This document shows positions 7,941-15,808 of a stretch of DNA of 39,542 nucleotides, one piece after another (position 1 is the first letter of the stretch; each line of letters begins with the position of its first letter). Origin of the DNA: a virus; IMG/VR virus record IMGVR_UViG_3300045988_111821, one strand, 5' to 3'. Below the pieces are notes generated by a model, which was not told the origin of the DNA, did no database searches, and was given only the letters and a program-made list of their open reading frames with translations. The translations under genes and the position numbers were made by a program.

Positions 7941-8828
7941 ATGGCAAGACCGCAAAAAAAAGGATTGCTGTACTTCCCATTTGACACGGATTTCTTCGCA
8001 GACCTAAAGATTCGGGCACTCAGTGCAAGATACGGATCGGATGGATTGATATTCTACATATGGTTGCTTGCGGAGATATATAGAGAAAACGGTTATTACA
8101 TCGTATGGAATGAGGACAGCGAGGATGCAGCGATAGCATCCCTTGGGCTGTCCGAGGGTTCAATGAAGCAGATAATGACATTCTTGGCTAGTCGGTCACT
8201 AATCGTTGAGATCACACTTGCTAGTTCGGACACTATCATTACCTCCCCGAATATACAGAAACGCTATCAGGAGGCGGCAAAGAGCCTTAGACGTGAAATC
8301 ATAGTTGATTGTGAGATATGGCTTTTGAATGAAGAGGAGACCGCTTCTTTTATTAAAGTCACCCAAAATTCGGATAAATACAGTAAAAACCATAATAAAT
8401 CCGTTAAAAATGAGAGTAAATCCCGTAAAAACCCCACAAATAAAATAAAAGTAAATGAAATGAAAGTAAATGAAAGAGAGGGCGCACCCGCAAAGCATTC
8501 ATATGGACCATTCGGAAATGTGATGCTGTTGGATGATGAATTCACCAAGCTCGCAGATAAGTACGGAGCTGATATTCGTAACGATGCAATCGAATTTCTT
8601 GATATGTACATTGAAGAGAAAGGTTACAAAACAAAGTCTCATTATCTCGCAATTATTCGATGGGTAGTAAATGCAGTGAATGAGCGCAGGCAGAAACAGA
8701 GACGAGGATATCAGAGCAATATGCCTAAGAGTATACAACCGACACAGGAGCGTGTATCTGCGCTTGATGAGATGGAGGCTCTCTTTCAACAGGAGGTGAA
8801 TGGATTTGACAAAGGCAGAAAGAATTGA
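7941..8828 (+). CDS. Replisome organizer / DnaD-like replication initiation protein
   Basis: From the ATG at 7941 (AAGGAAGGAG upstream). N-terminus ARPQKKGLLYFPFDTDFFADLKIRAL (DUF4373/Lin1244-like). C-terminus ...KTKSHYLAIIRWVVN is DnaD-like. Confidence 0.72.
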   Translation: MARPQKKGLLYFPFDTDFFADLKIRALSARYGSDGLIFYIWLLAEIYRENGYYIVWNEDSEDAAIASLGLSEGSMKQIMTFLASRSLIVEITLASSDTIITSPNIQKRYQEAAKSLRREIIVDCEIWLLNEEETASFIKVTQNSDKYSKNHNKSVKNESKSRKNPTNKIKVNEMKVNEREGAPAKHSYGPFGNVMLLDDEFTKLADKYGADIRNDAIEFLDMYIEEKGYKTKSHYLAIIRWVVNAVNERRQKQRRGYQSNMPKSIQPTQERVSALDEMEALFQQEVNGFDKGRKN

Positions 8829-9363
8829 ACTGCGAAATCAGAAGATCATGGAGAATATCAAACTCGTGTATTTTCATTTGAATAAATATCATGGATTCCC
8901 AAATTACGATGACATCATACAGGAAGGTGTACTTGCACTGGTGGAAGCCATTGACAGAAGCAAGGATCTGGAACACTTAAATCGAAATTATATCGGTATA
9001 TATATCAACAGATATGTGGAAAGATACATTCAATTTGGAGATGTGACAGTACGTACACCATTTCACTGGAAAGATGTCGAGAAACCACAGTATGTATCAC
9101 TCGACAAGATTGTAAATGATGATGGTGACAGTTATGGGGATTCGTTTCTGGAAGACAGACACGATTGTATCGGAGAACTTATTACGATGATGGATTTTGA
9201 ACATATGGTAGATCAGTTGTCTCCGAGAACACAGAAGCCGATGCGGTGCATGCTGCAGGGATATGGCATGACCGATACAGCGAAAATGTGCGGTATATCG
9301 TTTGAACGAGTGAGACAGATCAAGAAGCTGTGCAATAGAGAACTGGTTGCAAGTGAGGTGTGA
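8800..9363 (+). CDS. Sigma-70-family RNA polymerase sigma factor (phage-encoded)
   Basis: Region 2-like DDIIQEGVLALVEAIDR and region 4 HTH MTDTAKMCGISFERVRQIKKLCNREL. Overlaps the upstream gene by 29 nt. Confidence 0.7.
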   Translation: MDLTKAERIELRNQKIMENIKLVYFHLNKYHGFPNYDDIIQEGVLALVEAIDRSKDLEHLNRNYIGIYINRYVERYIQFGDVTVRTPFHWKDVEKPQYVSLDKIVNDDGDSYGDSFLEDRHDCIGELITMMDFEHMVDQLSPRTQKPMRCMLQGYGMTDTAKMCGISFERVRQIKKLCNRELVASEV

Positions 9364-9364
9364 C

Positions 9365-11887
9365 ATGACGTATAGAGAATTTTTAGAAAGTAAAATTGAT
9401 CTTGCGACAGAAAGCGGATTTGTGGTTGATCATTCAAAGATCAATCCGGCGTTGAAACCGCATCAGGCAGATGCTGTTGCGTGGGCACTTAAGGGTGGAC
9501 GCCGGGCATTGTTTGAAGCGTTCGGACTTGGAAAAACGGTACAGGAAATTGAATTCTGTCATCAGGCAGCAGAACATACCGGAGGCAGAGCACTTATCGT
9601 GTTACCACTCGGAGTAAAGCAGGAGTTCACAAGAGATGCCGTGGAACTGCTTGGATATGAGAAGCCGGAGTATTGCCGGACGATGGACGAGGTCAAGGCG
9701 TGTGACAGTCAGATTGTGCTGACGAACTATGAGCGAGTGAGAGATGGTGATATAGATCCATCGTACTTTGCTGCAACGTCACTGGATGAAGCAAGTGTAC
9801 TCCGGAGCTTTGGAAGTAAGACATATCAGACATTCTTGGATAAATTCAAGAACGTTCCATATAAGCTCGTAGCAACGGCTACACCATCGCCGAATAAGTA
9901 CAAGGAGCTTATACACTATGCCGGATATCTGGAAGTCATGGACACCGGACAGGCACTGACAAGATTCTTCCAGCGGGATAGTACAAAGGCAAACAACCTG
10001 ACGCTGTATCCGAATATGGAAGATGAATTCTGGTTGTGGGTGTCAAGTTGGGCGCTGTTCGTTACAAAGCCGTCTGATCTCAATCCTGACTACTCAGATG
10101 TTGGATACGATCTGCCACCGCTTGATGTCAGATGGCATGAGATACCGATTCATTACGGAGATACAGCGGACAGGGACGGACAGATGCAGCTCTTTCAGGA
10201 AGCGGCAGAAGGATTGAAAGAAGCGGCAGCAGTTAAGCGGGACAGCATAGACATCCGGGTACAGAAGATGAAGGAGATTGTAGATGCTTCGCCGGATGAT
10301 CATTTCTTGTTGTGGCACGACCTGGAGAGTGAACGCCATGCAATCAAGAAGGCGTTGCCAGAGACGGTTGATATCTATGGATCCATGGATTATGAGACGA
10401 GAGAACAGCGTGTAATTGATTTCTCAAATGGAAAGACACGGTTGTTTGCAACAAAGAAATCGCTGTCTGGCTCGGGGTGTAATTTCCAGCGGTATTGCCA
10501 CCGGGAAATATTCCTTGGTATTGATTATGAATTCAATGATTTTATTCAAGCAATCCACAGATGTTACCGGTTCTTGCAGAGTCAGCCGGTTGTGATTGAC
10601 ATTATCTACATGGAGAACGAGCGGCAGATCAAGGAAGCATTGCTGGAGAAATGGAAGAATCATAATTACATGGTCAAGCGGATGGTTGAGATCGTGAAGA
10701 AGTATGGACTTAATTCAGCGAACAAAGCTGAACGATTGGAAAGGAAGATGGGAGTGGAAGGAACAAGAGAAGAACGAACCGTGCGAGGTAATCACTATGA
10801 AGCGGTATACGGCGACTGTGTGGAAGAAACACGCGTTATGGCAAGTAACAGCGTTGATCTGATACATACGTCGATACCATTCGGCAATCACTACGAGTAC
10901 AGCGCAAATTATAACGACTTTGGACACAACCAGGATACAGAGCGGTTCTTTGTACAGATGGACTACCTGACGCCGGAGCTTCTGCGAGTGTTAAAGCCGG
11001 GTAGAGTGGCAGCAGTGCATGTTAAAGACAGAGTGCTTTTTGGAAATGCGACTGGTACCGGGATGCCGACGATCGAGCCGTTTCATGCGGATTGTATCGA
11101 ACATTACATGAAACATGGGTTTATGTATTTCGGCATGATCACTGTTGTGACGGATGTTGTACGAGAGAATAATCAGACATACCGCCTTGGCTGGTCTGAA
11201 CAGTGCAAGGATGGCACCAAGATGGGTGTAGGATGCCCGGAATATATCTTATTGTTCCGAAAGCTCCCAACGGATCATAGCAAAGCATATGCAGATGATC
11301 CAGTATCAAAGAGCAAGGAAGAATACACAAGGGCACAATGGCAGATAGACGCACATGGATATTGGAGATCGTCGGGCAATCGTCTGATCAGTAAGGATGA
11401 GCTGAAAGAGATATCGGTGGATAATCTGCAGAAAGCATACAGGAAATACAGCAGAGAGAGCGTTTACAACTATGAAGAGCATGTGAAGCTTGCAAAAGAA
11501 CTTGATAAGGACGGCAGACTGCCGGCTACTTTCATGGTGGTTGCTCCGGGATCATGGAACCAACTTGAGGTATGGGATGATATCAACCGGATGCGGACAC
11601 TTAACACGACACAGAGCCGCAGAAGAGCACAGATGCATGTATGTCCATTGCAGCTTGATATCGTGGAGCGAATCATCAACAGATACAGCAATCCGGGAGA
11701 TGTCGTATATGATCCGTTCGGCGGACTTATGACGGTACCGATGACGGCGGTTAAGATGCACCGCTTCGGGAAAGGCTGCGAATTGAATCCTGATTATTTC
11801 CGAGATGGAGTTGGATATCTGCAGGCAGCAGAAAACGAGATGGACGAGCTGACACTGTTCGATTTTATGCCGGGGGTGATGGAGTGA
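9365..11887 (+). CDS. SNF2/SF2 helicase fused to a beta-class N6/N4 DNA methyltransferase
   Basis: 840 aa from the ATG at 9365. Helicase motifs GLGKT, DEAS, TATPSPN, QAIHRCYRFLQ. MTase motifs DLIHTSIPFG (motif IV position) and VVYDPFGGLMT...GCELNPDY (motif I). Confidence 0.82.
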   Translation: MTYREFLESKIDLATESGFVVDHSKINPALKPHQADAVAWALKGGRRALFEAFGLGKTVQEIEFCHQAAEHTGGRALIVLPLGVKQEFTRDAVELLGYEKPEYCRTMDEVKACDSQIVLTNYERVRDGDIDPSYFAATSLDEASVLRSFGSKTYQTFLDKFKNVPYKLVATATPSPNKYKELIHYAGYLEVMDTGQALTRFFQRDSTKANNLTLYPNMEDEFWLWVSSWALFVTKPSDLNPDYSDVGYDLPPLDVRWHEIPIHYGDTADRDGQMQLFQEAAEGLKEAAAVKRDSIDIRVQKMKEIVDASPDDHFLLWHDLESERHAIKKALPETVDIYGSMDYETREQRVIDFSNGKTRLFATKKSLSGSGCNFQRYCHREIFLGIDYEFNDFIQAIHRCYRFLQSQPVVIDIIYMENERQIKEALLEKWKNHNYMVKRMVEIVKKYGLNSANKAERLERKMGVEGTREERTVRGNHYEAVYGDCVEETRVMASNSVDLIHTSIPFGNHYEYSANYNDFGHNQDTERFFVQMDYLTPELLRVLKPGRVAAVHVKDRVLFGNATGTGMPTIEPFHADCIEHYMKHGFMYFGMITVVTDVVRENNQTYRLGWSEQCKDGTKMGVGCPEYILLFRKLPTDHSKAYADDPVSKSKEEYTRAQWQIDAHGYWRSSGNRLISKDELKEISVDNLQKAYRKYSRESVYNYEEHVKLAKELDKDGRLPATFMVVAPGSWNQLEVWDDINRMRTLNTTQSRRRAQMHVCPLQLDIVERIINRYSNPGDVVYDPFGGLMTVPMTAVKMHRFGKGCELNPDYFRDGVGYLQAAENEMDELTLFDFMPGVME

Positions 11888-13467
11888 TACACGGAGAGCT
11901 TATTGTAGATAATTTCGCTGGCGGTGGCGGAGCGTCAACAGGCATCGAAATGGCGACTGGGTATAGCGTAGATATCGCAATCAACCACGATCCAGAAGCG
12001 ATTAAGATGCACAAAGCCAACCATCCACGAACTAAACATTATTGCGAGAATGTGTGGGCGGTAGACCCGATCGCAGCATGTAAAGGAAATCCGGTAGGAC
12101 TTGCTTGGTTTTCACCGGACTGCAAACATTTCAGCAAAGCCAAAGGCGGAAAACCTAAAGACAAGAATATTCGTGGACTTGCGTGGGTAGCCTGCCGGTG
12201 GGCAGGTCTTGTAAGACCAAGAGTGATCATGCTTGAGAACGTAGAAGAGTTCAGAACATGGGGACCATTAAATCGACGCCATCACCCAGTTAAGAACAAA
12301 CAGGGCAAGACCTTTGAACGGTTTGTAAGACAGCTTGAAGAGTTAGGGTATGAAGTGCAATTCAAGGAGCTTGTGGCAGCAGACTATGGAGCTCCAACAA
12401 TGCGAAAGAGATTCTTTATGATTGCACGCTGTGATGGAAAATCAATCGTATGGCCAGAGCCTACACATGCACCGGCGGACAGTGAGGAAGTCAAGGCAGG
12501 GTTGTTTAAACCTTATGTTGGAGCCTACACGCAAATTGATTTTAGCCTGCCTTGCCCGTCCATATTTGATACTTCCGAGGAAATCAAGGAAAAATACGGC
12601 ATACGGGCGGTCAGACCGTTGGCACCTAAGACTATGGAAAGGATAGCAAGAGGATTAAAGAAATTTGTACTGGATAACCCAGAGCCGTTTATCATTCAGT
12701 GTAAATTTAACAATGATGCGCAGGACATCAAAAAACCTTTAGGAACGATAACAACCATAGGAAGTCACTTATTAGTGGAACCATATTTATCGGTAAATAG
12801 GGAAAACCATTTCGGAAGCGATATGAGGGAACCGATACATACTATCACATCGAATAATCAGCATATGCTTATGACACCGACGCTGATTCAGTATCATTCT
12901 GAAACAGCGCAGGGAGAAGTTCGAGGGCAAACCATAAAAGAACCGATCATGACAGTTGATGGTTCGAACCGGTACGGATTGGTTACATCGTTTCTCAGTA
13001 AGTTCTATAAGACGTGCATCGGGCAGGATGAAAGAGAGCCGTTACATACAGTGACAACGTCTGCGGGGCATTTTGGAGAAGTCCGGGCATTTCTGATTAA
13101 ATACTATGGTGATGCTACCGGACAGGACATTAAACAACCATTAGACACGGTTACCACAAAGGATAGATTTGGTCTTGTAACGATTGAGGGTGTTGATTAC
13201 CAGATTGTGGATATCGGACTTCGAATGTTGGAACCACGAGAGTTATATGGATGTCAGGGATTTCCAGAAGATTACATTATTGATCATGATTATACTGGCA
13301 AGACATATCCGAGAACGGAGCAGGTAAGAAGATGCGGCAATGCAGTGTGTCCACCGATACCGGCTGCACTTGTGAGAGCAAATCTTCCGGAAATGTGTGT
13401 TGCAAGAAGAACAGCCAATATGAGAGTTGCAGAGGAAGCAAATGGACAGTTGATGATGTTTGCGTAG
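11884..13467 (+). CDS. DNA (cytosine-5)-methyltransferase with an expanded repeat-containing variable region
   Basis: FAGGGGAS (motif I), FSPDCKHFS (motif IV), MLENV (VI), RKRFFMIA (VIII), CGNAVCPP (X). The GTG start overlaps the upstream TGA (GTGA). Confidence 0.9.
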   Translation: MIHGELIVDNFAGGGGASTGIEMATGYSVDIAINHDPEAIKMHKANHPRTKHYCENVWAVDPIAACKGNPVGLAWFSPDCKHFSKAKGGKPKDKNIRGLAWVACRWAGLVRPRVIMLENVEEFRTWGPLNRRHHPVKNKQGKTFERFVRQLEELGYEVQFKELVAADYGAPTMRKRFFMIARCDGKSIVWPEPTHAPADSEEVKAGLFKPYVGAYTQIDFSLPCPSIFDTSEEIKEKYGIRAVRPLAPKTMERIARGLKKFVLDNPEPFIIQCKFNNDAQDIKKPLGTITTIGSHLLVEPYLSVNRENHFGSDMREPIHTITSNNQHMLMTPTLIQYHSETAQGEVRGQTIKEPIMTVDGSNRYGLVTSFLSKFYKTCIGQDEREPLHTVTTSAGHFGEVRAFLIKYYGDATGQDIKQPLDTVTTKDRFGLVTIEGVDYQIVDIGLRMLEPRELYGCQGFPEDYIIDHDYTGKTYPRTEQVRRCGNAVCPPIPAALVRANLPEMCVARRTANMRVAEEANGQLMMFA

Positions 13468-13476
13468 GAGGTAGAT

Positions 13477-14721
13477 ATGGAACAAGAACAATTTGACTTC
13501 TTGGAAGATATTGAGATAGACAAGCCGGATGTGGAATTCCAGAAGTGGAAAGAACAGAAGCGTGAAGCAAAAAGCCGGATGATTGCCATGCAATATCAGC
13601 CATATGAAGTAAAAAAGAAGAGGTCAGAACTCCGTGCAATAGAATTTCTTCAGGAGATGGATAAACGTGGAAAAACAGCACATGTGAGTGTCGGTGGACT
13701 TGATAGTATTACATTGCATGTATTCTTGAAATCTATCGGAATTGATGTACCGGCAATATCAGTATCGAGTTTGGAAGATGCAAGTATTCAGAGAGTGCAT
13801 AAAGCACTTGGTGTGACAATTCTGCATTCATATAAGACAAAGACACAGGTTTTGAATGAAGTTGGATTTCCGGTAATCAGTAAGCGTATAGCAGGTAAGA
13901 TTGCATTGTTACAGAATCCGACGGAAAAGAATAAAACGGTCAGACATGCAATTATTACGGGTGAATGTGGAGAACTAGGACATTTTCAGAAGAATAGCAG
14001 GATGAAACTGCCGCAGAAGTGGTTGAAATTGTTCGGAGGGTATGAAAACGAAAATGAAGGAGTGAACTATCAGAAACCGGATTTCAAGGTATCAAATGAT
14101 TGTTGCTACTGGCTCAAAGAAAAACCATGTGACGACTGGGCGAGGGAACATCAGAGCTATCCGTATCTTGGAATGATGGCATCGGAAGGCGGGCAGAGAG
14201 AAGAAGCGCTTACCGATCACGGATGCAACTACTATGGAAAAACTACAATGCGATCGGCTCCGTTTGCTCCGTATATGCGAAATGACATATTAAAGCTGGC
14301 ATCGGAAATGGATGATTGGTATCACAAAAACATGGATGTGTTTGTGAAGTTGTACTATGAGCAACCTTACAGCAAAGACAAGAATGGAAATGTAATACCA
14401 TATGAGCCGGTGGATAGCATTATACCGGATATTTACGGCGATGTAGTACAGGATCAGTGCGGAAATCTTCGGACTACAGGAGCACAGCGAACCGGATGTA
14501 GTATGTGTGGCTTTGGCATTCACATGGAGAAAAGACCACATAGATTTGATAAATTGCGAGAGCGTAACCAGAAAGAATGGGAGTATTACATGTACCGGTG
14601 TTGTACAGATCCAGAGACTGGAGAGAAATATGGCTGGGGAAGAGTTCTCGATTACATAGGAGTTCCGTGGGAAGATTATCCGGCAATTCAGATGGAGTTG
14701 CCATTAGATCAGATGATGTAG
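13477..14721 (+). CDS. PAPS-reductase-like PP-loop protein (IbrA/DndC-like family)
   Basis: PP-loop-like VSVGGLDS (aa 70-77). C-terminal Cys motif RTGCSMCGFG. AGGAGG RBS. The start is 9 nt after the MTase stop. Confidence 0.72.
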   Translation: MEQEQFDFLEDIEIDKPDVEFQKWKEQKREAKSRMIAMQYQPYEVKKKRSELRAIEFLQEMDKRGKTAHVSVGGLDSITLHVFLKSIGIDVPAISVSSLEDASIQRVHKALGVTILHSYKTKTQVLNEVGFPVISKRIAGKIALLQNPTEKNKTVRHAIITGECGELGHFQKNSRMKLPQKWLKLFGGYENENEGVNYQKPDFKVSNDCCYWLKEKPCDDWAREHQSYPYLGMMASEGGQREEALTDHGCNYYGKTTMRSAPFAPYMRNDILKLASEMDDWYHKNMDVFVKLYYEQPYSKDKNGNVIPYEPVDSIIPDIYGDVVQDQCGNLRTTGAQRTGCSMCGFGIHMEKRPHRFDKLRERNQKEWEYYMYRCCTDPETGEKYGWGRVLDYIGVPWEDYPAIQMELPLDQMM

Positions 14722-14744
14722 CGTCGAAATTTGAACTTTGAAAA

Positions 14745-14773
14745 TTGAATAATGATGGTTGGAGTGGTATAAT
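14745..14773 (+). promoter_or_regulatory. Strong sigma-A-type promoter with extended -10
   Basis: TTGAAT (14745..14750), 17 nt, TGgTATAAT (14765..14773). Confidence 0.7.
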
Positions 14774-14804
14774 ATCCTTACCAATACGAAGGAGGATATG
14801 TATT

Positions 14805-15053
14805 ATGGGTTTAATTGATAACACAAAACAGTTTTGTTTAACATGCAAAAATAAGGGTGTAGTAGACACTATAAGTGCAGAGGACATGGATAAATTTGAT
14901 GAAGAATATGATAGACTAGATAAAATGGGATGTCTTTCCGCAGATCAAGTTTATGACAAAGCCTCACAAGGATGCAAAAAAGATTATTTCTACTGTCCGT
15001 ATTGTGAAAATGGACAAAAATATAAAGATAAATATCCTAAGTACAGAGCATAA
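14805..15053 (+). CDS. 82-aa zinc-ribbon protein encoded by a moron
   Basis: From the ATG at 14805 (AAGGAGGA 8 nt upstream). CLTC...CPYC. It has its own promoter and terminator and sits in an AT-rich segment. Confidence 0.7.
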   Translation: MGLIDNTKQFCLTCKNKGVVDTISAEDMDKFDEEYDRLDKMGCLSADQVYDKASQGCKKDYFYCPYCENGQKYKDKYPKYRA

Positions 15054-15068
15054 AAGTGTATGTATTTG

Positions 15069-15105
15069 ATACCAACCATCATTATTCGATGGTTGGTATT
15101 TTTTT
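15069..15105 (+). terminator. Rho-independent terminator
   Basis: ATACCAACCATC (15069..15080) pairs with GATGGTTGGTAT (15088..15099), followed by TTTTTT. Confidence 0.85.
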
Positions 15106-15128
15106 GCGCAAAAATGGAGGATATGAGC

Positions 15129-15329
15129 ATGTACATAGAAGAAATAACAGGGCAGACGATTATTCCGAATCTGATGGACGATGAGAACGTCTGCATGATT
15201 AAGAGAAATTATTCGGGCAAGCTGGAGATCATTGAGCTTGCTACGTTCCAGATTTCGAAGATTAAGAAGTATATGGAACGTAAGGATGTTGCATTTGTTA
15301 TCGTAAAGGATGATGAAAAGGGAGCGTGA
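15129..15329 (+). CDS. Hypothetical protein
   Basis: 66 aa from the ATG at 15129 (GGAGGA 7 nt upstream). The longer ORF-track version runs through the terminator. Confidence 0.5.
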   Translation: MYIEEITGQTIIPNLMDDENVCMIKRNYSGKLEIIELATFQISKIKKYMERKDVAFVIVKDDEKGA

Positions 15330-15808
15330 TTTTGTTGAGAAAAATGAAAGTAAAGAACTATCTGCAACAGGTACAGAAGATTGATGCTGTGATCACAAAC
15401 AAGATGATCGAGCGGGAGCAGTGGCTTACATTGGCAAGCTCATTGTCCGGACAGAATGGAGAGCGTGTGAAGTCGTCAGGATCCAATCAGAAGATGGAAG
15501 ATTCGGTCGTTATGGCTATTGACGCTGCAAGAGATATTGATAAGTATGTGGCAAGGCTCAGAGATGTTAAGAGCGAGATCAGCGAAGTGATTCAGCAGAT
15601 TCCGGTCAAGGAGTATAACGTGTTGCACAAGCTCTATATTCAAGGCAAGGACCTTGACGATGTGGCAGCGGATAACAAGAAATCGTATTCGTGGGCGTCA
15701 ACCATGCATGGAAGGGCACTTGCTCACGTTCAGGGCGTGCTTGATACATTAGAAGCTCTTCCGGAGAACAGCGGGAAGTATCGTTTTCGGAAGGGGTTGA
15801 AGCTGTGA
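15326..15808 (+). CDS. DUF1492 / ArpU-RinA-like late transcription regulator (sigma region-4-like HTH)
   Basis: N-terminal coiled region, then YNVLHKLYIQGKDLDDVAADNKKSYSWASTMHGRALAHV, typical of DUF1492. The start is uncertain (GTG 15326 or ATG 15344). Confidence 0.62.
   Translation: MILLRKMKVKNYLQQVQKIDAVITNKMIEREQWLTLASSLSGQNGERVKSSGSNQKMEDSVVMAIDAARDIDKYVARLRDVKSEISEVIQQIPVKEYNVLHKLYIQGKDLDDVAADNKKSYSWASTMHGRALAHVQGVLDTLEALPENSGKYRFRKGLKL

Follow-up and report, generated by a model that had tools for sequence, protein, structure and literature searches.

The only functional precedent for the genes described here comes from the Vibrio crassostreae podovirus p0018, where a phosphoadenosine phosphosulfate (PAPS) reductase domain fused to a Dam DNA methyltransferase (MTase) confers, together with one neighbouring gene, escape from the Dnd defence (Piel et al., bioRxiv 10.1101/2021.05.05.442762; Nat Microbiol 2022); it is a precedent at the level of the superfamily. 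All known phosphorothioation (PT) systems need a nucleoside triphosphatase (NTPase) partner (DndD, SspC or BrxC) and a DNA-recognition component, and such systems are found in about 7.7% of gut isolates (PMC12914056). PAPS reductases also occur in Aca-regulated anti-defence operons, and a role of such phage proteins in PT or against it has already been proposed (PMC13551039); the question of their function is recognised in the literature. Here we analysed a stretch of viral DNA of 39,542 nucleotides (IMG/VR record IMGVR_UViG_3300045988_111821; hereafter the window). It represents a temperate prophage of the siphovirus type from gut Lachnospiraceae, and in it a gene of this superfamily lies directly behind two DNA MTase genes.

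We read this locus as the distal end of an early operon that carries three independently mobile modification or counter-defence cassettes, the third of which probably encodes a sulfur or adenylation enzyme tied to phosphorothioation, and we hold this reading with moderate confidence. The encoded proteins are referred to as P1, P2 and P3, and the features of the region are as follows.

8800..9363, plus strand: sigma-factor-like gene, given for context only (phrog_351 RNA polymerase sigma factor, E 1.2e-16)
9365 (ATG)..11887, plus strand: P1, SNF2-type helicase fused to a beta-class N6/N4 DNA methyltransferase, 840 aa (Pfam, phrog_16)
11884 (GTG)..13467, plus strand: P2, C5-cytosine DNA methyltransferase, 527 aa (PF00145, phrog_116)
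12730..13233, plus strand: repeat region within P2 (aa 283-450), made up of five tandem units resembling target-recognition domains (regular-expression and position analysis)
13477 (ATG)..14721, plus strand: P3, divergent PP-loop protein of the PAPS-reductase superfamily, 414 aa (phrog_424, homologues, fold)
14745..15100, plus strand: moron (promoter and terminator scan, sequence)

The assignment of P3 had to be made through its relatives. For P3 alone, searches of Pfam up to E<10 and of NCBIfam and PADLOC gave no match to any profile, those of DndC, SspD and BrxP included, and a sequence search of the PDB with a profile of its close homologues found nothing; the sole direct profile match was phrog_424, labelled 'PAPS reductase' (E 4.7e-23). 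The family comprises 5,375 clusters at 90% identity and 1,241 representatives at 50% identity, and none of the top 120 cluster representatives (0/120) has a precomputed Pfam domain. Judged by these searches, the P3 sub-family is abundant in gut viromes and undetectable by PF01507, NCBIfam and PADLOC, and most pipelines would call it 'hypothetical'. We searched profiles with 30 diverse family members that share 28-57% identity with P3. PF01507 was matched by 26 of them (best 4.6e-29), the BrxP profile by 22 (best 2e-22) and SspD by 19, both at the level of the domain only, and DndC, weakly, by five (4e-7), with a single match to TIGR03183 (DndC); many also matched the NCBIfam models of CysH, adenosine phosphosulfate (APS) reductase and CysD, and 11 matched QueC weakly. 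Because of this transitive homology, the phrog_424 match and the fold, we place P3 in the PAPS-reductase superfamily.

The fold was predicted with AlphaFold2. The first model, built from 29 close homologues, was poor at aa 134-199 and 339-353 and was replaced by a model built from 44 family members, down to 28% identity (pLDDT 88.9, pTM 0.85), and the same 44 sequences served for the conservation analysis. The top Foldseek matches of this model were APS/PAPS reductases (4bwv, 6vpu and 2goy, prob 0.84-1.0), followed by other PP-loop enzymes; all of these matches were weak, with E of at least 5e-3 and a target template-modelling (TM) score of about 0.5. The two motifs singled out by the sequence-only reading, VSVGGLDS at aa 70-77 and RTGCSMCGFG at aa 338-347, are real and beyond chance, as their key residues are among those that are invariant in the family: G74, D76, S77, E100, K136, K214, R241, C209, C210, C341 and C344 were found in 44/44 members, and C250 in 43/44. 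The PP-loop, V72-G-G-L-D-S77, comes right after the strand 67-71, at the position of the SGGxDS loop, and its first residue is S in canonical phrog_424-type members and V or F in the P3 sub-family. C209, C210, C250, C341 and C344 make up the predicted [4Fe-4S]-type cysteine set. P3 also carries a family-specific insertion of about 65 aa (aa ~134-200, ISK...LQNPT...LTG...KW).

Among the members of PHROG 424 are proteins of the Clostridium/Enterocloster phages Villandry and Saumur, the C. perfringens phages phiCP34O and phiCP13O, and Enterobacter phage Tyrion (gp48). P3 is 68% identical to the Villandry protein and 59% to that of Saumur, shares with all of them the signature GYPVxSK...LQNPT...CCxxLKxxP...RTGCxxCxFG, and is like them a stand-alone accessory gene with changing neighbours. 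It differs from the other members in that its sub-family lies beyond detection by PF01507, NCBIfam and PADLOC, has V for the first S of the loop, and has a longer C-terminal region (414 vs ~310 aa). P3 homologues with 67-79% identity were also seen on contigs of metagenome-assembled genomes labelled Bacteroides, Tidjanibacter and Bacteroidales (L246, L274, L288), while all other hosts were Clostridia; these are either mis-binned prophage contigs or a sign of a wider host range. The genome closest to the prophage is that of Lachnospiraceae bacterium UBA4711, and related prophages were seen in isolates of Dorea, Roseburia and Blautia.

With the sulfurtransferases DndC, SspD and BrxP of the Dnd, Ssp and BREX type 4 systems, P3 shares the PP-loop ATP-pyrophosphatase core and, by prediction, Fe-S cysteines. 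Aligned by hhalign to one DndC (the C-terminal part of the homologue P0152), the P3 family profile gave a prob of 85.5% and E 5.7e-6, and the aligned motifs were the PP-loop, GYP, C-x2-[LR]K-x2-P, ES-x2-R and TG-x2-R[TF]GC-x2-C. As a profile comparison, this shows homology to DndC, not membership of DndC. Unlike DndC, P3 lacks the C-terminal region (PF20306-type) and has the insertion of about 65 aa, which the alignment shows to be absent from DndC; it has CC before the LK motif, as in APS reductases, whereas the compared DndC has a GCxCC dyad. According to Rakesh et al. 2024 (PMC10853773), DndC has a separate cysteine dyad in addition to its [4Fe-4S] cysteines. In comparison with BrxP, P3 has no fusion to DUF4007 (SspB-like), and it carries no extra Pfam domain. 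From these data P3 appears to be a divergent member of the PAPS-reductase superfamily that is probably active and has putative Fe-S ligands of the APS-reductase/DndC type. A reading of P3 as an IbrA of an IbrA/IbrB pair was rejected, since DUF3440 was matched by neither P3 nor the 30 relatives and no ParB-like neighbour turned up in the census of immediate neighbours described below.

One long homologue, P0152 itself, at first sight connects the two families: in this protein of 625 aa (L483:709-2586, Logan contig ERR6121479_248131) a P3-like fragment without the PP-loop is joined in frame to a DndC-like protein, and its gene is followed by a DndD-like SMC/AAA gene. The junction was shared by none of 7,590 homologues of the DndC side, and as the case is a single, non-recurrent contig of 3.2 kb we did not accept it as evidence of a P3-DndC linkage; it is probably a one-off rearrangement or an assembly chimera. 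Other long homologues were a chimera with a nitrogenase-type domain (P0167) and one with a tape-measure-like tail (P0159), and none was a fusion of P3 to an MTase or a helicase.

In its surroundings the P3 family is associated with DNA MTases. They account for 27% of the genes adjacent to P3 in the close set of loci, against 1-2% further away, and in a broad set of 90 loci, dereplicated and taken from remote branches of the family, open reading frames (ORFs) with MTase motifs make up 7-9% within ±3 positions, against 3-5% beyond. The linkage of P3 to DNA MTases that had been suspected from the window alone is thus, inside the clade of P3, stronger than expected by chance. When the 149 genes that directly flank P3 relatives in the distant branches were surveyed with Pfam, 10 DNA MTases of three classes formed the largest functional class, and no dominant partner emerged; this census further included six portal proteins (5 Phage_portal, 1 Portal_Mu), three ClpP, three radical-SAM, two S-adenosylmethionine (SAM) synthetase and two ThyX proteins. 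In annotated phages, genes of the P3 family were found in four settings: in the gap between portal and head protease, after the head genes, in the early region, and after the gene of the single-stranded DNA-binding protein (SSB). Two side observations from these neighbourhoods deserve mention. Three immediate neighbours of PAPS-like genes are PAPS_reduct proteins themselves, that is, tandem paralogues, and in Ruminococcus phage NatCom_29429 (L084:3444-4529) and several IMG/VR loci the PAPS-like gene is inserted after the portal gene and before that of the head-maturation protease, where one would hardly expect a gene of DNA metabolism.

The partners on which known PT systems depend were searched for (NTPase, desulfurase, ParB and DUF4007) by clustering the genes within ±4 positions in the 80 close loci and by the census of 149 neighbours. 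Neither DndD/DndE with a cysteine desulfurase nor the NTPases SspC and BrxC were encoded near P3 in the ~220 loci examined; SspB, PglZ, ParB and DUF4007 were likewise not seen beside it in these two surveys, and DndD/DndE are absent from the window. This disfavours backbone phosphorothioation carried out by the block alone, one form of the PP-loop-dependent backbone modification suggested earlier, as an NTPase partner is needed and none lies near P3.

Could P3 perform some other PP-loop chemistry? It might thiolate or amidate a nucleobase in DNA or tRNA, in the manner of TtuA, TtcA or QueC, inactivate a host defence molecule by an adenylation-dependent reaction, or take part in SAM-linked Fe-S chemistry. 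A PP-loop combined with a [4Fe-4S] cluster is the hallmark of tRNA thiolases, and TtuA, NcsA and LarE are among the fold and sequence matches. The weak QueC matches, the radical-SAM, SAM synthetase and ThyX neighbours, an insertion that could bind a novel substrate and the lack of PT partner genes nearby would all suit such a role. On the other hand, PAPS/APS reductase, BrxP, SspD and DndC rank above tRNA thiolases and QueC in both sequence and fold, and the gene shows no linkage to tRNA genes, DpdA/Tgt or further members of such pathways. We regard this alternative as a minor contender. Unlikely, in our view, is the proposal that the P3 family is self-sufficient: with a host cysteine desulfurase only, it would place a sulfur mark (a phosphorothioate or a thio-base) on phage DNA or neutralise PT-sensing defences, and it would be deployed with broad-specificity methylases as a multi-layer island of epigenetic camouflage in gut prophages.

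The second half of our reading, the independence of the three cassettes, comes from comparing loci. Our species-level sample consisted of 54 evaluable prophage loci from different Lachnospiraceae and Oscillospiraceae species, with genes counted within ±7 kb of P3. P3 stood with neither P1 nor P2 in 25/54 loci, with P2 only in 12/54, with P1 only in 8/54 and with both in 9/54, and these nine loci showed at least four gene orders (P1-P2-P3, P3-P1-P2, P1-P3-P2 and P2-P3-P1). A set of 80 viral contigs carried the nearest relatives of P3 (67-100% identity); among them the order P1-P2-P3 was seen only where P3 was at least 96% identical, and even there two contigs were without P2. At ~82% identity, one lineage has a P2-type MTase directly downstream of P3 and no P1, and another has P1 upstream and no P2. 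Neither gene was present in about 45 of the 80 contigs. Across the whole set, the other recurring neighbours were replication and recombination genes and antirepressors. Viewed from the partners, P1 homologues (85-94% identity) had P3 nearby in 13 of 40 loci and lacked it in 27, with P2 nearby in 23; P2 homologues (75-84% identity) had P3 nearby in 12 of 37 loci and lacked it in 25. The P1-P2 pairing recurs more than the pairing of either with P3. In prophages of gut Clostridia, then, P1, P2 and P3 often share one variable region, yet each of them can be missing, and they are not inherited together as a unit. Because each gene comes and goes independently and the orders are reshuffled, we describe the block as a loose anti-restriction island rather than an obligate complex or pathway.

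These counts bear directly on the claim of the sequence-only reading that the block is one integrated system not yet described. In its strongest form, P1, P2 and P3 would together install a novel hyper-modification beyond m5C, m6A or m4C, such as a phosphorothioate, and the SNF2 helicase would stand in for the ATPase that is DndD, SspC or BrxC in known systems. The translational coupling in this phage is in its favour, as are the known PAPS::Dam fusion of a Vibrio phage and the nature of P1, an ATP-dependent DNA translocase, which is the kind of activity that PT systems need (PMC12914056); the co-occurrence of all three genes in nine loci despite shuffled order suggests some selection for proximity. 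The claim nevertheless largely fails on co-inheritance, with P3 alone in nearly half of the sampled loci and about two thirds of P1 or P2 loci without P3. The P1 and P2 families occur in hundreds of phages that have no PAPS-like gene, the neighbours of distant P3 relatives are unrelated, and no fusion of P3 to an MTase or helicase was seen among long homologues. We consider such an integrated system improbable. Nor are the genes themselves undescribed, as P1 and P2 have homologues in 306 and 305 phage records, respectively. Each of the three proteins belongs to an already annotated phage family, and their arrangement is no new system and raises no new question.

The label usually given to phage genes of this kind in viromes is that of an auxiliary metabolic gene (AMG), here a CysH-type PAPS/APS reductase that boosts the host's assimilatory sulfate reduction and thereby its cysteine supply. 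Relatives of P3 are labelled 'phosphoadenosine phosphosulfate reductase' and match the NCBIfam CysH and APS-reductase models, the AMG reading has been proposed for Bifidobacterium prophages, and the assimilatory CysH structures (PDB 1SUR, 6VPU, 2GOY, 4BWV) are the best solved-structure matches and share the core fold with P3. The spacing of its CC...CxxC cysteines resembles that of the [4Fe-4S] ligands of APS reductase. The C-terminal catalytic cysteine of the ECG[LI]H motif is essential in PAPS/APS reductases. A regular-expression search for this motif, relaxed to ECG[LIVM]H, found it in 0/44 family members. The structural matches are as weak as stated above, the insertion is specific to the family, and canonical members keep the ATP-pyrophosphatase-type SGGKDS loop, unlike CysH. 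The gene lies among DNA-metabolism, MTase or head genes and never beside cys genes; neither the clusters of neighbouring genes nor the census of 149 contained a sulfate-assimilation gene (cysD/N/C/I/J). Together with the hhalign match to DndC, the lack of the motif upholds the earlier expectation that P3 and the assimilatory CysH enzymes do not cluster together; by its sequence features P3 is not an assimilatory CysH, and we judge a role as a sulfur-metabolism AMG very unlikely.

The comparison with p0018 shows both likeness and distance. In p0018, as in the window, a PAPS-reductase-superfamily domain of a phage is linked to a DNA MTase in a variable anti-defence region, and at the level of the superfamily this outdates the earlier statement that phage PAPS-reductase genes near MTases are uncharacterised. 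The p0018 domain differs from P3 in being Pfam-detectable, N-terminal, 175 aa long and fused to Dam, whereas the MTases of the window are separate genes of the C5 and N6/N4 types.

Several points weigh against our reading. As tblastn queries, neither P3 nor a canonical family member recovered the p0018 protein, which is from another branch of the superfamily. P3 itself matches none of the DndC, SspD and BrxP profiles, and the first Ser of the canonical SGGxDS loop is Val in its sub-family. Since PT partners were never found encoded beside it, a PT role of P3 would need partners supplied by the host. The MTase enrichment is only about 2-fold in the broad set and rests on few lineages in the close set, and the distant relatives that lie among head genes or elsewhere are compatible with any accessory function. 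Finally, the processivity of P1 and the multispecificity of P2, discussed below, are inferred from architecture only.

The domain calls made from the window alone held for all three proteins, by Pfam for P1 and P2 and by phrog_424, homologues and fold for P3. P1 combines SNF2-rel_dom and Helicase_C (helicase, aa ~30-445) with N6_N4_Mtase (aa ~497-813), and matches phrog_16 across aa 9-834 (E 7.9e-126). Its full-length homologues in phage records (counted at ≥80% coverage) are 46-55% identical and collinear over 99% of the length; they come from phages of Mycobacterium, Arthrobacter, Pseudomonas and Flavobacterium and are labelled 'DNA helicase/methylase' or 'DNA methylase N-4'. The PHROG 16 members Arthrobacter phage Auxilium gp73, Mycobacterium phage Zerg gp66 and the protein of Pseudomonas phage vB_Pae_BR326a can be aligned with P1 over the entire length (50-55% identity) and have the catalytic motifs and the position in an early or replication module in common with it; the difference is one of host phylum only (P1 being from a Bacillota gut prophage), and a functional difference is not evident. 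The motifs GLGKT, DEAS and TATP of the helicase and TSIPF and DPFGG of the MTase are identical in the homologues from actinophages and Pseudomonas phages, whose genes adjoin those of SSB, single-strand annealing protein (SSAP), HNH and polymerase subunits and have no PAPS-like gene beside them. In some phages the helicase and methylase halves are separate adjoining genes. Most likely P1 would methylate replicating phage DNA processively. In Auxilium (L088), gp73 and gp77, a P2-like long C5-methylase, are 2 kb apart. In the Mycobacterium phages Doug, Rita, BuzzLyseyear and Tootsieroll, the P1-like match spans ~3.5 kb in two pieces, compared with 2.5 kb in Zerg, which suggests an insertion of about 1 kb within the gene (an intein or a homing endonuclease).

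DarB-type polyvalent proteins combine helicase and DNA methyltransferase content, as P1 does, but the suggestion that P1 is packaged in the virion and injected with the DNA, so as to methylate the entering genome in cis ahead of any restriction by the host, is highly improbable, as P1 lies in an early replication and recombination operon near the sigma factor, RecT and the replication initiator rather than among virion genes, its homologues lie in the replication-type surroundings just described and are split in some phages, and the protein has 840 aa with the helicase N-terminal.

P2 matches PF00145 in two stretches (E 9.7e-28) and phrog_116 (E 1.1e-100), and has the C5-MTase motifs FAGGG at 11, SPDCKHFS, ENV at 118 and GNA at 485, motif IV reading P-D-C rather than P-C. 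The catalytic domain is interrupted by a variable region of five tandem units of ~33 aa (aa 283-450) with the core [KR]xP[LI]xT[IV]T, and close homologues (457-605 aa) have 1-6 copies of the unit, a spread that suggests fast gain and loss of recognition modules. The P2 family count given above likewise refers to records with at least 80% coverage. Multispecific C5-MTases of Bacillus phages (SPR, phi3T, rho11s, H2) carry tandem target-recognition domains in their variable region, with one specificity for each domain. P2 resembles them in having a catalytic core split by a variable region of tandem modules, here with a motif of the P-x-T-[IV]-T type and a number that differs among homologues; it differs in its shorter units (~33 aa), which follow one another with greater regularity, and in its motif IV, as noted. 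None of the SPR, phi3T, rho11s and H2 enzymes was among the listed matches of the P2 search. By analogy with these multispecific phage methylases, P2 probably methylates several target sequences.

As to the layout, the coordinates and strand of the three large head-to-tail ORFs were confirmed, as were the overlap of the GTG start of P2 with the TGA stop of P1 (GTGA) and the 9-nt gap with AGGAGG inside that separates the P2 stop from the ATG of P3. Tight packing and overlapping stop and start codons are ordinary in phage operons and alone are no sign of a functional system. The stop of the sigma-like gene is 1 nt upstream of the ATG of P1, which makes the block the last part of an early operon that starts further upstream, and no separately bounded unit. 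From the left end on, the prophage carries an integrase (phrog_1), recombination genes of the RecE and RecT kinds, a replication initiator and the sigma-factor-like gene; P1-P2-P3 are followed by the small moron, a Q-like late regulator (15326-15808), an HNH endonuclease, the terminase and structural genes. With the sigma-like gene packed against P1 and the Q-like regulator after the moron, the modification genes are flanked by two phage transcription regulators. The block does end, as had been noticed, before a moron bounded by a promoter and a terminator: the promoter-like site, TTGAAT-17-TATAAT at 14745-14773, begins 24 nt past the P3 stop, has 10/12 matches and a TG-extended -10, and is the best such match in 8700-15400, and a terminator with a 13-bp stem lies at 15068-15100. 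Between them are a ribosome-binding site (AGGAGG, 14790-14795) and an ORF (14805-15053) for a Zn-ribbon-like protein of 82 aa with two CxxC pairs, which has no PHROG match. No near-identical DNA was found in the INPHARED phage collection.

Taking our reading of three separate cassettes as the starting point, P1, P2 and P3, which are translationally coupled in this phage, would also be co-transcribed, and what they have in common would be a variable hotspot and a purpose, the evasion of host restriction. P1 and P2 would methylate replicating phage DNA, which would thereby evade host restriction-modification systems. P3 would be a stand-alone putative PP-loop ATP-pyrophosphatase, an ATP-dependent Fe-S enzyme that works without a phage-encoded partner. 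It may mark phage DNA by plugging into the PT machinery of the host, or it may interfere with PT-dependent defence (Dnd, Ssp or BREX type 4).

Phage genes for PAPS-reductase-like proteins abound in gut viromes and routinely receive the label of sulfur-metabolism AMGs. For the P3 family this label is probably wrong, because the CysH motif is missing, the ATP-pyrophosphatase loop and the Fe-S cysteines are kept, and the proteins are homologous to PT sulfurtransferases and tend to be encoded close to DNA methylases. A gene of the P3 type would accordingly belong not to sulfur metabolism but to the epigenetic arms race between phages and their hosts. What the analysis brings out is a P3 sub-family that the standard profile libraries do not see, and the sequence evidence against its usual label. 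Should the self-sufficient mode of action hold true, the P3 family would be the first case of an enzyme that, as a single protein, modifies DNA with sulfur or counters PT.

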